Shown: piece by piece, positions 30,768 to 45,564 of the stretch
How the letters are laid out: each line of letters starts with the position of its first letter
How positions within the stretch are numbered: position 1 is the stretch's first letter
Sequence record: ON286973
DNA length: 64,000 nt
Direction: 5' to 3' (one strand)
DNA from: Escherichia phage A51.2
Made by a program: the position numbers and the translations under genes
The notes under the pieces: generated by a model
What the model was told of the DNA's origin: nothing
Database searches by the model: none
What the model saw: the letters and a program-made list of their open reading frames with translations, nothing else

Positions 30768-32183
30768 CGCACAATTAGCTGCCCGGCCAAAGTGCTGGAA
30801 GCACCTATAACACATCTTTCAACTAAATTTCCCACCACCACAATCACTTACCTTCCACACATGACTGTTTGCTTGTTTAGTGAGCAGTCATGCCTTGACA
30901 TTCTTGCCTATCCTGATAAAATTAAGTTCTTCTCTTTTCTTTTACCGAGTAATTCGGGTTTTCTGTTCTCTTCGGTTTGAAGGGGTATAGAGATACACCT
31001 GAGTGAACAGGGTGAACAACCGAACCATTAGCTATGGCATTAGCATGGCGAAGCGGACGGGTGACGAAAGAGGGGCCGGAGGACACCAGTCACTGCCATA
31101 TGATATATGGGTGATAACCTGAAGAGTCTGAATAAGTGTTTAAGTACCAGTCAGAGGAAAAGGTGAATGGTAGCCGAAGGGGGGAGGGGGGTTTCTTGTA
31201 TCTTTAATTTGTATATTATGTATACACTTGTAAACCAATCTAATCTGAATCTGTTTACCACACAAAGCGGATAGAGACAAATATTGCCTATTAAACTTGA
31301 ATTATTTATAGAAAATACCACAACACCCCTTAAGTCTTTGATTTTACACACAAATCCTACAGATATTCAACCTCCATATTTAACATACTTGTAACATATT
31401 CCATACTCTACCTGCCTGATCAATTTCCCCAACTACATTCTCATATTTCCCCTGTCTGTACTACCCTGCCCCACCGGGAGTCCCGTCATATCTGGCTTTC
31501 CAGCAAATATCACACCCACAAATATCATGCCTGAAGAGGGTTTCATCCCATAATACCTGCCTTGCCTGAAGAGCGCTTCATACACCACGTAAATTTTTTA
31601 ATTGACCTCCCCTGCCCCGCCGGAGAGGTTGGCTTTTCCCACACAGACCTGGAGAGTCAGCCAGAAATATCTGAATAGGCCCAGTTCTACCACGATTTTG
31701 ACCTGACCTACAGGAGCGCTGCCAGGCGGACGAAATGGGAATACTTCTCATTCTTATAACAATTCTCAAATATCGAGGCAGTGAGGCAAATTAATAGGCC
31801 AGGCCGTTCACACAGTGGCACAACATTTGCAACCTATCTTGTGGGGTGAATGAGAATACCTATCATTGTGAGAACCATTATCATTACGGGCAATTTAACA
31901 TAATACCCATTATGCGCACCACTGGCGATCCATACAGGGATTGATAACACGAGTTACAGTTTACGCATATAACAATCATATTTCTTACTATTTGTGTGGG
32001 ATATAGTTAGCAGCCGATAGATTAGATATTGACCTGTGGACTTCCAACCGTCTAGACGTCTAAGCGCCCACACAACAAGGCTTATACATACATTACTGAA
32101 TGTAAACAGGGCCGCAAAAATGCTACCATACCAGTTTGTAAATTTTTCATGCAGCACTTGACAAAGAGGAGGAAAACTTGTCT

Positions 32184-32277
32184 GACACAATGTCACACAA
32201 TATGACACAATAACGGCTGTTACCATTCCATATCTCACTGTTTACGCATAGACTGTTTACGCCTGGATAGTTTACAC
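32184..32277. repeat. short direct repeats: GACACAAT x3 (32184-32211) and TGTTTACGC x2 plus GTTTACAC (32239-32277)
   Basis: Read directly from sequence; non-coding. Confidence 0.8.
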
Positions 32278-32395
32278 AGATATGATAAGCCATGCCATTC
32301 GTTTGCATGAAAACAATTAACAAGATAACAATCGACAAGTTAATAATCTTTCGCTGGCTATGCCAGGTGACTAGGTCACCCCTTCGGGCGTTCCT

Positions 32396-32550
32396 ATGAC
32401 ATAATATAAAAGCAGGGCAACTATTAGCAGATCTATAGTTGCCTTGCTTGTTATGTCATGATTAACTAAATACAAGGCAACTATGATCTGATTAATAGTT
32501 TGCAGACAAACTATCACGGGGGTGATGGTTACTGCTTTTATATTATGTCG
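32396..32550. repeat. inverted-repeat-bounded cassette with GGCAACTAT iterons in alternating orientation
   Basis: ATGACATAATATAAAAGCAG (32396-32415) vs its reverse complement 32532-32550 (19/20); GGCAACTAT at 32416, 32476; ATAGTTGCC at 32435; ATAGTTTGC at 32495. Confidence 0.75.
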
Positions 32551-33195
32551 CGACTCCGTCGCGCCATGCCATTCGTTTGCATAGTTGCCTTATTGTTATG
32601 AATAAAACAATTGCATTGTTAATGATTTCTTATCTTTCTATTAGTCATCTAATGATTTCAGTCAGGATAGTAATGTACAGTAAACATTAGACGACTAAAG
32701 ATTTCTCTGTTTATGATAACCTATCGTGACAATTTCGGACTGTTTACGAAAAATGTTGACACCTGAGCTGATTTATGTTATGCAGTTTACACGAATAATT
32801 ATTTTATACAGGTATTGACTATTCTGTTATTCTATGGTTGGAATAAATACTTAGCAGACTATAGAATGGTGAGCGTACGTAAATTCTGAGATCTGGCGGC
32901 TATAGTTATACTCGATTTTTCACGTAGAACGCGCTTTTGTGGTTATGTAAGTGTATGACTTATAAGAATTTTTATTTGTTGACAAGATATTGAAGATGTG
33001 CATCAGGTTAAAATTTGTGCAATAGCGGCATTACGTGCAATTTTGAGGGAGAAAACGGGTAAAAATGGCCCTGCTACCACACAATGAAAAATTATGCAAT
33101 AGTTATTTTATATGTATGTTTGTACAGTGTGTGGGATTGATGGCTAGTCAATTATTCCACTTGCCAGGCTGGGCCGTTTGTGGTAGGGGGAAGAG

Positions 33196-33225
33196 CAGAC
33201 AAAAAGAAAGGGGCCTAAGCCCCTT
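33196..33225 (-). terminator. intrinsic terminator for minus-strand small-gene cluster
   Basis: Hairpin AAGGGGC-TTAG-GCCCCTT followed by U-run on minus strand, just 3' of gene 33244..33663. Confidence 0.6.
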
Positions 33226-33243
33226 GATAATTCAGTTAAAAAA

Positions 33244-34491: not shown

Positions 34492-34516
34492 CGGTTTTTA
34501 TAGTTCTTATATGACA

Positions 34517-34539
34517 GGCAGGCCCGGTGATTGTCTCCC
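34517..34539. repeat. 23-bp repeat GGGAGACAATCACCGGGCCTGCC (minus orientation), identical to 44142-44164
   Basis: Perfect 23/23 inverted match about 9.6 kb apart. Confidence 0.85.
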
Positions 34540-34628
34540 CCCTGTTCCCAAGTGCCGCCCGTTTAATAAGAATAACAAAAGGGGCCGAACAAGTCAACCC
34601 CAAAATCAGTACCAAAAACACTTTTTAT

Positions 34629-36829: not shown

Positions 36830-36885
36830 GATGATTTGCCTCTCTTTATTTTCATAATTGGGGGGCCTTTTCGGCCCCGCCAGGT

Positions 36886-42986: not shown

Positions 42987-43385
42987 TTATTCGTGGGCAC
43001 ATGTTACAATGTGCTTTTTATAGCCTAGGTGGTCAGCAAGTGCTGACAAAAACTCTTCTTCGTAGATCCAGCCGTTGGCAGTGATCCCCATAGCATTTAA
43101 TGCGCTCTCAAGTGCTGCGTTAGCTTTATCATAACCGTGACCGCTCGCCTTGCCGCCAGTATAGCCGTACTTATTGTTCTTGTTGTCGTGTATCCAAAAA
43201 ACGCAGTAGTAAGTGTTCCCGCTGTCGGCGGCATAATACCGGATCTCAGCTACTTCGTGCAAATTATTGTCATCGTCCAGGCCCACCAGATTATAAGCCT
43301 TGTAAAATCCACGATCACGGCGGCAGTTCTTGACATCAGAAAAAGAAAAGTCTGCATTATCAAAATTAAAGGTAGTGGTTTTCAT
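42987..43385 (-). CDS. hypothetical protein
   Basis: 132-aa ORF. Confidence 0.45.
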   Translation of the reverse strand: MKTTTFNFDNADFSFSDVKNCRRDRGFYKAYNLVGLDDDNNLHEVAEIRYYAADSGNTYYCVFWIHDNKNNKYGYTGGKASGHGYDKANAALESALNAMGITANGWIYEEEFLSALADHLGYKKHIVTCAHE

Positions 43386-43449
43386 GATTTTATCCTCTTA
43401 GTGTCTTTTGTGCTTTTAGTGTATTTGGTGTCGGACTATATGTCAATAC

Positions 43450-43647
43450 TTATTTTTTATTAAACCAGTGGTTGATCTGACCTTTTGTCAGGGCGCAACG
43501 ATTAAGCTGTTGCAGGGTATAGCTATGACCGCGACGAAATTTATAAAGGCCTTGCCCGTTGTTGATGGTTACATCCACCCGGCAAATCACTTGATTGGTG
43601 ACCACCTGGCGAGTGTTGCGACGTACTTTGATCCCGTATGCGTTCAT
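43450..43647 (-). CDS. hypothetical basic protein
   Basis: ATG 43647 after AAGAGGA; ORF-track start 43725 probably an extension. Confidence 0.4.
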   Translation of the reverse strand: MNAYGIKVRRNTRQVVTNQVICRVDVTINNGQGLYKFRRGHSYTLQQLNRCALTKGQINHWFNKK

Positions 43648-43943
43648 AAATTTATCCTCTTTACTGGTTAGTGCGGTGTTGTTCACCTTGTAGGGTAATA
43701 ATACCATGATTAACCTTGTTGTCAACGACTATTTTAAATTATTTTTATGATAGAATCCACCTGCCGCCGCCCTGCCAGGTTAACCATCATTTTTTCGTAC
43801 TCTTCTTTATGTTCCAACGCTCCCGCCATGGCCTTTTCAACCAGGGCGATAGCCTCAGCGTCATTAATAGCTACATTTTCCAGGCTGGCCCCGCCAGGTT
43901 GCAGCGGTTAGCGCATCAGGTTAGAAAAATTTTTTGAAAAGTG

Positions 43944-43972
43944 TTGACAGCGGCCCCGCCAGGTGGCACAAT
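43944..43972 (+). promoter_or_regulatory. possible promoter (TTGACA-17-CACAAT) reading into GC-rich element
   Basis: Good -35, moderate -10; no ORF downstream. Confidence 0.3.
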
Positions 43973-44141
43973 ATACCTATCGAAAGGACGGCAGGCACCG
44001 GTGACGGGGGAGACAACCACCGGGGATGGGCGCTGCATAAAATGAGAACGGTTATCATTATCATTTAAAAATTTATGCAAAAAATCCTTGCTTTCTTTGT
44101 CCTGTGTGATACTATAATAACAAGCCGGGGCAACAGGGGCC

Positions 44142-44164
44142 GGGAGACAATCACCGGGCCTGCC
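44142..44164. repeat. 23-bp repeat GGGAGACAATCACCGGGCCTGCC (plus orientation); variant copy at 44008-44025
   Basis: Identical to reverse complement of 34517-34539; preceded by TATAAT at 44114. Confidence 0.85.
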
Positions 44165-44397
44165 CGTTATTCTGCAAACGAGAATGATTATCATTCAAAA
44201 TTCTAAATGAGAACTCCTCGCATTTAATAAATTTAATTAGCACGCTAATTACCCTCCGTAACAATTTCCTATAAAACAGTATCCCATAAAATATTCCCGT
44301 ATAGAAATTTTAAAAATCCATTTCTGAAAACGAAAAATCGATTTCGTCCCCAAAAATTTTAGGCCAAGAGCCGGAGCGATTTCCAGAAAATCCGATT

Positions 44398-44488
44398 CAG
44401 AAAACGAAAAACAGATCGAGTACTGAGAAATTTATCGAGAAAAATTTTCAGAAAATTCAATCTTTGAAACGAAAAACAGATCGAGTAC
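44398..44488. repeat. direct repeats: ACGAAAAACAGATCGAGTAC x2 at 65-bp period, degenerate third copy at 44326
   Basis: Perfect 20-bp copies at 44404-44423 and 44469-44488 in AT-rich non-coding DNA. Confidence 0.8.
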
Positions 44489-44799
44489 CTGGAAAGCTGC
44501 ACCGCAACTTCAAGATAGTGGTTGGATTATTGCTATAAAAGGTCAAGGGTAAGTGGAGGAAGTTCTAGTAGCGAGATGTAAGCATGTGCGGGAAATCTAT
44601 AATGGTGGTCTGGAATATGGTGCAAACGGTAGGATGAGTGATTCAGCTTGTCGCGCCTACTCTGAAAAATCCATTTTAGTTTTCGATCCATTTTCTGATT
44701 TTCTAAGGATTTTAAAATATCCTGGCAGGTAAAATATCAAAAGGAGGAAATCCATTTTAGAAATCCTCCTGATCTCTGGCAACCTGATAACTTAAAATA

Positions 44800-45132
44800 T
44801 CAGGCTCCCAGTGTGTTCTTTCCTTTGTACAACCTTAAGGGTATAGTTTTTGTAACAGTCCATCTCCCCAGCCCTTCCCAGTTCCAGTTGTAGGCATGGT
44901 ACCCGGTTACGCATGCACTGCTAGAGTGGTCATAGGCATAAGAGAACGCTATACGCACCAAATGGAACCAGTCTTTCCACGGTTGTGGTCCGTAAGCTTT
45001 TCTCCAACACCGACACAAACTAAATGTCTCAAGAATAGGCAGGATAACAAATCCATACACCGCCACCAGAATAGCCAGCGCAATGATTGTCAGGAATACA
45101 TACCCTGCAGTTGAAACGATGATCTCTGTCAT
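44800..45132 (-). CDS. membrane protein (N-terminal TM segments)
   Basis: VFLTIIALAILVAVYGFVILPIL. Confidence 0.45.
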   Translation of the reverse strand: MTEIIVSTAGYVFLTIIALAILVAVYGFVILPILETFSLCRCWRKAYGPQPWKDWFHLVRIAFSYAYDHSSSACVTGYHAYNWNWEGLGRWTVTKTIPLRLYKGKNTLGA

Positions 45133-45332
45133 TTGTCGTCCCCTTTCTTACGGATATAGATGTGAGAACCTGCCTGTATATAAATTTCTCGACCATCTTC
45201 TGCGAAGATGTGGAATACACGGTCACCTTCGTACTCAATACGAGATATCTTCATAATGGTCTTTCCACCTGGGATACGGATCTCGTCCCCCACAGCGATG
45301 TTCCATGCAGATTTAAGCTTAAACATCTGCAC
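45129..45332 (-). CDS. hypothetical protein
   Basis: 67-aa ORF. Confidence 0.4.
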   Translation of the reverse strand: MQMFKLKSAWNIAVGDEIRIPGGKTIMKISRIEYEGDRVFHIFAEDGREIYIQAGSHIYIRKKGDDK

Positions 45333-45564
45333 CCTCCTTTGGGAACTTGAACTCTGGCATAGCCATATACGCTACAACAGGGTTGTGATCAAAGTAGAAC
45401 TGACCGTTAATTATCCCGGTTTTGTCCACATAGTTACCAGATCCTGCAAGAACAACCTCGCAAGCTCCGAAATCTACATTGCCATCCTCATCAGCCATGG
45501 CTACGATATACTTTCCAAGAGGCATGTTTTTAACGCCGTCTACAAATGTCCACCCTTTGCTCAT
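45319..45564 (-). CDS. hypothetical protein
   Basis: 81-aa ORF. Confidence 0.4.
   Translation of the reverse strand: MSKGWTFVDGVKNMPLGKYIVAMADEDGNVDFGACEVVLAGSGNYVDKTGIINGQFYFDHNPVVAYMAMPEFKFPKEGADV

Follow-up and report, generated by a model that had tools for sequence, protein, structure and literature searches.

The 64,000-nt stretch of Escherichia phage A51.2 examined here (record ON286973; 'the window') contains an island of about 1 kb that lacks intact genes. It is flanked by a 65-aa gene (43453-43647) on one side and by a 110-aa gene for a membrane protein (44800-45132) on the other. Its sequence suggests a cis-acting DNA control module that is most likely, on a tentative reading, a transcription-activated iteron-type origin of replication or a secondary origin of rV5-like phages. 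The core of the module consists of promoter P_A, leader element A and palindromic box A; promoter P_B, leader element B and boxes B1 and B2; an AT-rich stretch; and three iteron-like units, in this order (Table 1). Tandem promoters that lead into an AT-rich stretch and phased iterons, and that are kept across genera independently of their neighbors, are the signature of a transcription-activated origin. The module is the best-conserved non-coding DNA found in the early/replication arm of the phage. It is a control region that has so far gone undescribed, and public GenBank records mis-annotate it as hypothetical proteins. Non-coding control regions that combine promoters, operators and iterons are of a known kind; what is new is this module, its leader motif and its array of Fur-like boxes. 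No relevant paper was found for the motif strings in the searchable literature.

In the proposed mechanism, P_A and P_B would be used by host sigma70 polymerase and fire rightward against the flanking genes, with a third promoter, P3, added in relatives. Each transcript would begin with a G-rich leader carrying GAGACAAWCACC and then cross a palindromic operator, to which a dimeric protein would bind; among known regulators, the consensus of host Fur alone fits. Transcription would then reach the AT-rich stretch and the three phased repeats, which would be protein-binding sites. Its passage could open or prime the AT-rich and iteron DNA, and the operator boxes would gate that transcription.

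Table 1. Features of the non-coding island and of the related element elsewhere in the window
Feature	Position	Strand	Description	Evidence and conservation
Gene remnant	43729..43880	-	3' remnant, homologue of Gotham F10B_0201	Alignment with three relatives; tblastn
GGCCCCGCCAGGT repeat	43887..43964	+	Two exact copies (43887-43899, 43952-43964); A5T6 UP-like tract between them
P_A	43944..43972	+	TTGACA-17-CACAAT, upstream TG	Promoter scan 10/12; 97-100% identity in relatives
Leader element A	43979..44041	+	G-rich segment, core GGGAGACAACCACCGGG at 44008-44024
Box A	44042..44062		ATGAGAACGGTTATCATTATC, Fur-box-like palindrome	16/19 to Fur consensus; 100% conserved in three relatives
P_B	44088..44118	+	TTGCTT 44088-44093, extended -10 TGaTACTAT 44107-44115, overlapping TATAAT 44113-44118	By eye
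Leader element B	44122..44177	+	Core GGGAGACAATCACCGGG at 44142-44158; predicted outer helix and CCGG/CCGG hairpin displaying AGACAAUCA
Box B1	44178..44198		ACGAGAATGATTATCATTCAA; perfect 7-1-7 palindrome GAATGAT-T-ATCATTC at 44182-44196	15/19 to Fur consensus
Box B2	44207..44223		Degenerate copy ATGAGAACTCCTCGCAT, 29 bp after B1	+51 offset common to relatives
AT-rich stretch	44199..44304		20-40% GC; possible weak rightward promoter TTTCCT-16-TAAAAT (~44266-44293)	Promoter by eye
Iteron unit U1	44305..44356		Right half degenerate	Repeat family D1; 92-100% conserved
Iteron unit U2	44379..44430		AAATCCGATTCAGAAAACGAAAAACAGATCGAGTAC	Repeat family; 92-100% conserved
Iteron unit U3	44444..44495		65 bp after U2	Repeat family
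Filler	44496..44660		Poorly conserved	53-90% identity to relatives
Two exact AAATCCATTTTAG copies	44667..44760		Equal to left half of iteron unit	Families D4, D6
Leftward promoter-like site	44754..44782	-	TTGCCA-17-TAAAAT	Promoter scan 10/12
Leader element copy C	34500..34601	-	Core 34523-34539; overlapping terminator and promoter (34601-34569) before, rV5 promoter P168 after

Conservation of the module

The window belongs to an rV5-like phage (Vequintavirus, the genus to which its relative Gotham is assigned). The 1.8 kb around the island share 99.8% identity with Escherichia phage phiWec191 and 93-97% with many rV5-like phages. A 286-nt query spanning both promoter-leader-box cassettes matches 263 phage records, 113 of them at 95% identity or more; the same threshold is reached by 6 of 121 records for the surrounding 1.8 kb. 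Loci from approximately 30 of these 263 or more homologues were compared by sequence. Against three rV5-like sequences, identity is 100% in the boxes, 91-100% in promoters and leaders, and 92-100% in iteron units U1 and U2, compared with 53-90% in the spacers and in 44496-44660. The functional core is therefore placed at 43944-44495.

One architecture, invariably placed on the strand that does not encode the flanking genes, recurs in Certrevirus, Mydovirus, Seunavirus, Avunavirus and Phapecoctavirus (Stephanstirmvirinae). It comprises a promoter with an RNA of ~95 nt (RNA1), a second promoter, a GC-rich element, one to five boxes, a third promoter and three repeats of 63-78 bp. Phapecoctavirus has other downstream repeats in the last position, and a Plateaulakevirus of Aeromonas keeps boxes and repeats without the leader core. 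The rV5 group has no RNA1 and carries a second copy of the GC-rich cassette instead. Proteins encoded beside the module in the window have no homologues beside it outside the sister group. The module thus outlasts its neighboring genes, a point in favor of its having a cis-acting role in its own right. The first-pass annotation had named absence of the repeats from related phages as grounds for doubt; they are conserved in five genera.

RNA1 (L016:1323-1417, L017:1318-1406, L142:1035-1129 and homologues) is promoter-driven and lies upstream of the GC-rich element in the five genera listed above. Its consensus fold has 16 pairs, one AU-to-GC compensatory pair and a terminal hairpin of variable length. 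It is not represented in Rfam and is absent from the window.

This pattern bears on the view that the island is decaying or filler DNA, a mixture of gene remnants and chance repeats that serve no function. Parts of the island do look this way, since 43729-43880 is a truncated gene and 44496-44660 is poorly conserved. However, the core is more conserved than the genes next to it, is kept across genera with differing flanks, and contains motifs far above chance expectation. Filler is excluded for 43944-44495 and is tenable only for the two segments just named; for the island as a whole it is scarcely credible.

Rightward promoters

Promoter-like sequences had been proposed ahead of each GC-rich element, and both are borne out, P_A by a promoter scan and P_B by visual reading. 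P_B is the weaker match to consensus and can be read either as TTGCTT-16-TGaTACTAT or with TATAAT at a spacing of 19, three bases further on. It is the positional homologue of the P2 promoters that a rule-based scan identifies in six relatives, and its identity to relatives is 93-100%. The same scan finds rightward promoters in every lineage, and in seven lineages the -10 element ends 27-29 nt ahead of the leader core, which therefore begins ~21 nt into the transcript. Within the window the corresponding distances are 29 nt (cassette B), 38 nt (A) and 32 nt (copy C); GAGACAAWCACC would lie ~21 nt (B) or ~32 nt (A) after the start. Promoter hexamers are kept across genera and their spacers vary. 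Conservation of the hexamers together with that of the core distance makes rightward transcripts likely. P_A and P_B point against the flanking genes, and the promoters given for rV5 at this locus are leftward ones only (PMC3606486).

The spacer of P_A is occupied by the second copy of a short repeat, GGCCCCGCCAGGT, and the segment carrying both copies is conserved in all four aligned rV5-like sequences. A third exact copy is found at 36855-36885, in an intergenic GC hairpin between two minus-strand genes. At the far end of the island, the -10 of the leftward promoter-like site stands immediately left of the 44748-44760 motif copy and has one base in common with it.

Leader elements

Two related GC-rich elements had been described at 44008 and 44142. 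They share the core GGGAGACAAYCACCGGG (44008-44024 and 44142-44158), and the motif said to trail both of them is present as GAGAAYGRTTATCATT at 44044 and 44180. A third copy of the core, missed in the first-pass annotation, lies on the minus strand at 34523-34539; three matches compare with 0.12 expected in the window. Around this copy C the order is promoter, element, promoter, gene, and P168 is listed in Table S4 of the rV5 paper (PMC3606486). Matches of 80-90% identity in distant genera reach the 3' part of element B and mostly cover the adjacent boxes (44178-44213). A host origin of the element was rejected, as it has no match in 5,426 E. coli genomes. The core also appears in a 168-kb contig behind a TTGACA-17-TATGAT promoter. 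We conclude that the leader is a promoter-proximal, orientation-locked element.

Further copies occur in an unrelated 46.8-kb metagenomic phage (L008 and L011; IMG/VR 3300027123_000194), which carries at least four instances of GGAGACAAWCACCGGGG. A TGnTATAAT promoter precedes each of them by 8-10 nt; a U-run, a second promoter and a small gene come next, and each copy has the orientation of this downstream gene. The L011 phage has no match in the phage collection. Two other roles for the GC-rich sequence were set aside: a G-quadruplex, because copies in L008 and L011 lack four G-runs, and a minus-strand terminator, because none is flagged by the scan and no tail is a U-run.

These elements could be read as a small-RNA locus. 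The transcripts of P_A and P_B would be structured RNAs, ~55-65 nt long, with an outer helix and a AGACAAUCA-bearing hairpin; they would act in trans or as cis 5' leaders with roles in stability, antitermination or protein binding, and the boxes would end or regulate these RNAs by roadblock. This reading is possible but somewhat doubtful. The distance from promoter to core is fixed in seven lineages, and the core is always co-oriented with its promoter, including copy C and the four or more copies in the unrelated phage. Nearly all of 24 homologues folded singly adopt one shape, in which an outer helix closes the 5' end and an inner CCGG/CCGG hairpin displays AGACAAUCA. When 11 sequences are aligned on a hand-set structure, 87.7% of cells pair, compared with 35-50% when the partner is slid. 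One pair is compensatory, and two others vary only between G-C and G-U, as fits the plus strand. The neighboring RNA1 of relatives, with its consensus fold, its AU-to-GC swap and its hairpin of variable length, is a further point in favor.

However, shuffle controls are not exceeded by the hand-set structure, folding z-scores of the homologues range from -0.03 to -3.8, and a test that pairs each 5' arm with its own 3' arm versus those of others yields p ~0.036. RNAalifold returns no consensus structure for the full leader alignment. The leader core is nearly invariant over 12 nt, and the pentamer after CACC swaps between GGACC, GGGGG, GCCCC and GGGCC mostly without compensation. No plus-strand terminator-like site is seen by scan in 43000-45500. 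A covariance-model scan for known RNA families, recommended in the first-pass annotation, gave no Rfam match: none reaches the gathering score across the 64 kb, only chance-level matches with E values up to 10 appear in 43400-45000, and 12 related loci yield none. RNA structure in the leader is plausible, not established. The earlier suggestion of small RNAs is thus upheld as to conserved promoters but not as to an Rfam family, a terminator or significant covariation.

Palindromic boxes

The sequence trailing each GC-rich element had been likened to half of a Fur-box-like repeat. The resemblance is stronger than this, since the boxes are full palindromes that match both the 7-1-7 and the 19-bp Fur consensus. 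Scored against the 19-bp consensus GATAATGATAATCATTATC (PMC11353095), the sites at 44044 (16/19) and 44180 (15/19) are the top two in 64 kb, where shuffled sequences lead one to expect 0.4 sites of at least 15. Relatives have one to five boxes with a period of 29 bp, at offsets of +22, +51, +80 and +109 from the core; B1 occupies the +22 offset found in all genera and is 100% conserved. The consensus across genera, AAATGAGAAT-N-ATTCTCATTT, is one base per half-site away from the Fur 7-1-7 sequence TGATAATnATTATCA, and one relative has a perfect 7-1-7 site, TGATAAT-G-ATTATCA. Phages in which the boxes are conserved infect Escherichia, Klebsiella, Salmonella, Cronobacter, Pectobacterium, Proteus and Aeromonas, hosts that have the Fur box in common.

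Half-sites of the boxes vary independently (GAGAAT, GATAAT and GCGAAT); in the most conserved box, a GAGAAT half faces a GATAAT half. This independence fits a dimeric DNA-binding protein and not an RNA hairpin. Boxes as RNA hairpins were rejected on this ground and because the most conserved box would contain a G-A clash. Other box-like palindromes in the window are limited to a first non-coding island at 30770-33240 (31735, 31850 and 31868) and one chance case in a small open reading frame (ORF). GAKAAY hexamers cluster most densely in the window at two places, 44021-44241 and 31761-31961.

Classical Fur operators overlap the -35 and -10 elements of the promoters that they control. The boxes lie 60-80 nt after one start and ~60-70 bp before the next promoter, overlap no rightward promoter, and are ~26 bp or more upstream of the next -35. 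A leftward TTGAAT-18-CAGAAT sequence does cover B1, with a sub-threshold score of 8/12; it passes the scan only in Avunavirus. The metal-responsive operator that had been proposed therefore has the expected match to the Fur consensus but not the overlap with a rightward promoter.

The same boxes are also present in an unrelated contig (L080:6600-7100; IMG/VR 2974666860_000001), where a tandem series of roughly ten AATGAGAATCATT boxes adjoins two DnaA boxes (TGTGGATAA) and repeated ATGTGCAAATCCGAC in an origin-like arrangement. Because this tenfold array adjoins DnaA boxes, the boxes of the module may equally be sites for replication or phage proteins.

A second interpretation makes the island an iron- or regulator-gated transcription boundary. 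The palindromes would be genuine Fur boxes or phage-repressor sites that control the rightward promoters; head-on promoters and bound proteins would separate two leftward gene blocks, and the arrays might titrate Fur. The rank of A and B1 among Fur-like sites, the near match of their consensus, their conservation across phages of seven host genera and a change in skew across the island (see below) all agree with this proposal, as does the presence of iron-dependent NrdAB and NrdD in the phage. The positions of the boxes relative to the strong rightward promoters do not, and the only promoter overlapping B1 is the weak leftward one. Furthermore, the usual period of Fur arrays is 6 bp rather than 29 bp, and AT-rich palindromes can serve other proteins, as the iteron-like L080 boxes beside DnaA boxes illustrate. 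Fur binding by the boxes is putative, and the boundary as a whole is doubtful.

A more elaborate scheme joins the boxes to the favored origin. In virulent Vequintavirinae and allied phages, host Fur on the box arrays would gate rightward transcription of leader RNAs of a new, promoter-proximal class (GAGACAAWCACC) into an iteron origin, and replication, through the iron-requiring ribonucleotide reductases of the phage, would become coupled to host iron. Alternatively, the boxes could titrate Fur as genome copies accumulate. This scheme is speculative and rather improbable. The origin, small-RNA and Fur-gated readings are not mutually exclusive.

AT-rich stretch and iterons

GC content falls to 20-40% over 44180-44330, between the boxes and the iterons. 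At the place of the weak TTTCCT-16-TAAAAT site, relatives show a clear P3 promoter. Direct repeats at 65-bp spacing, reported in the first-pass annotation, correspond to the 20-mer ACGAAAAACAGATCGAGTAC at 44404 and 44469 (0 expected), which belongs to a three-copy family of 52-nt repeats beginning at 44305, 44379 and 44444. The repeated motifs mentioned there are likewise real: AAATCCATTTTAG is exact at 44667 and 44748, with an 85% copy at 44314.

The three units are spaced 63-67 and 74-78 bp apart in five genera, and their conserved blocks are (G/A)AATACGAT and CGATCGAG(A/T)(A/C)C. An A5T6 tract is phased with every unit in Mydovirus, Seunavirus and L216 and with some in Avunavirus; elsewhere it is absent or partial. 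The units were also considered as a repeated RNA fold, which was rejected when their folds proved inconsistent. Variable repeat interiors and this inconsistency as RNA identify the units as DNA sites.

Repeats of this kind might instead mark a packaging (pac) site or a CRISPR-like or ToxI-like RNA repeat array. They have a period of 65-78 bp with GATC palindromes, and several database records begin a few kilobases away. However, the locus is in the early/replication arm, surrounded by small genes and genes for replication, GATC is not enriched, and no terminase was recognized in a protein scan for function that took in 10 of the 21 ORFs with lengths of 200 aa or more. Against RNA arrays stand the composite DNA palindromes, the variable internal spacers, the lack of a consistent RNA fold, and the absence of an adjacent cas or toxN-like gene. 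Both possibilities are very improbable.

Evidence for and against an origin

NrdA, NrdB and NrdD are encoded on the plus strand within the first 1-30 kb of the window. The first non-coding island, of 2.5 kb, comes next, where gene orientation switches. It is followed by a long minus-strand block that encodes a family A DNA polymerase, a DnaB-like primase-helicase, a DNA methylase and a PIF1 helicase, and the island described here is situated within this block. Across 34000-64000, mean GC skew goes from ~-0.06 (34-44 kb) to ~-0.12 (44-64 kb), and AT skew shifts as well, with the change at the island. In the rV5 genome paper, an origin was sought by skew analysis, and only changes that track transcription were found (PMC3606486).

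A replication start at the module would agree with the location of the polymerase, primase-helicase and PIF1 genes in the same arm, 8-18 kb away, and with the parallel box array beside DnaA boxes in L080. The iteron-type origin proposed in the first-pass annotation gains support from three regular, conserved repeats and an AT-rich segment; no DnaA or IHF site, linked initiator or skew of origin polarity was found.

Several observations weigh against an origin. No DnaA or IHF consensus site is present at the module, and GATC shows no enrichment there. No initiator gene was recognized next to it, and neighboring proteins are not conserved with it. Skew turns more negative to the right of ~44 kb, opposite to origin polarity, which may reflect gene class. 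The number of boxes drops to one in Seunavirus and Avunavirus. Ordinary gene promoters also have the leader element just upstream of them, at copy C and in the L011 phage, which means that its own role is not specific to origins. Finally, the first island (30.8-33.2 kb), at the orientation switch, is at least as good an origin candidate.

The first island also coincides with a switch in GC skew. In addition to the three Fur-like palindromes noted above, it contains GTTTACGC-type repeats and long inverted repeats, and it is a competing candidate.

Coding capacity

The claim that about 1 kb of the island is free of credible ORFs holds, with one correction. Three small ORFs are annotated over the island in GenBank relatives. 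A 92-aa antisense ORF annotated in Gotham runs through the elements and has in-frame stops in relatives or in the window, and a 70-aa ORF annotated in the right-hand part of the island (44496-44660) has two stop codons in the window. These interruptions indicate that neither is a gene. An apparent 'GDNHR' peptide frame over the core was also discarded, as it has no start codon or ribosome binding site (RBS) and accumulates non-synonymous changes.

The correction concerns 43729-43880, where only the 3' end of a small gene remains; relatives have the whole gene, with RBS and ATG. The homologue in Gotham (F10B_0201) is a real gene of 57 aa with a good RBS. By tblastn, the remnant is 82% identical over 45 aa and lacks the N-terminus. 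A deletion at ~43881-43885, beside the GGCCCCGCCAGGT repeat, took the RBS and start codon, hence its assignment as a remnant. The same loss is seen in the 99.8% relatives.

ARAGORN, run on the window and on seven related loci, detects neither tRNA nor tmRNA. GenBank OY757067.1 4031-7095 (L017) is annotated with a dozen tRNAs and HNH pseudogenes where ARAGORN sees no tRNA; the annotation is apparently offset from the sequence. In Phapecoctavirus and Avunavirus (L015:1074-1340 and L145:653-916), a conserved 88-aa plus-strand gene lies immediately upstream of the module. Its product (PHROG 19316) has a helix-turn-helix-like stretch, GGTVHQVASATGLKVETV, and is a candidate binder of the boxes or iterons. 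The window has no homologue of this gene.

Significance and comparison with known systems

Phages related to rV5 are widely used in biocontrol and therapy collections directed at E. coli O157 and Klebsiella. Should the module prove to be an origin or master switch, engineering and plasmid-based propagation would gain a defined target, as would the study of host dependence. Fur binding by the palindromes, if real, would make this a rare lytic phage that wires host iron sensing into its program. Neither the leader motif nor the RNA1 of relatives is in Rfam, and both are candidates for new RNA elements.

The closest models of a transcription-activated origin are lambda ori, T4 oriE and the T7 primary origin. 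Like lambda ori and T4 oriE, the putative origin is non-coding and would combine regularly spaced repeats of dyad symmetry with an AT-rich neighbor and transcription entering the region. Unlike them, it has only three units, which are long (52 nt, at a period of 65-78 bp), and it has no recognized initiator gene and no DnaA or IHF sites. The T7 primary origin (1.1A/1.1B) similarly directs tandem promoters into an AT-rich segment, and the phage has a T7-like replication set of family A polymerase and DnaB-like primase-helicase. However, the promoters here belong to the host sigma70 type and run counter to the surrounding genes, and T7 has neither a conserved G-rich leader nor an operator palindrome.

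The boxes resemble Fur boxes at 15-16 of 19 positions, in their 7-1-7 symmetry, in GAKAAT-type half-sites that vary independently and in their arrangement as arrays in relatives. They differ in lying 60-80 nt downstream of a promoter instead of over its -35 and -10, in their 29-bp period, and in belonging to a virulent phage with no iron-uptake gene nearby. The leader may be compared with the ops element of RfaH and the put RNA of HK022, each of which is similarly a short, non-palindromic motif at a small fixed distance after a promoter, orientation-locked and present in several copies per genome. However, ops (GGCGGTAGCGTG) has no sequence similarity to the leader, and no long operon follows the leader in the island.

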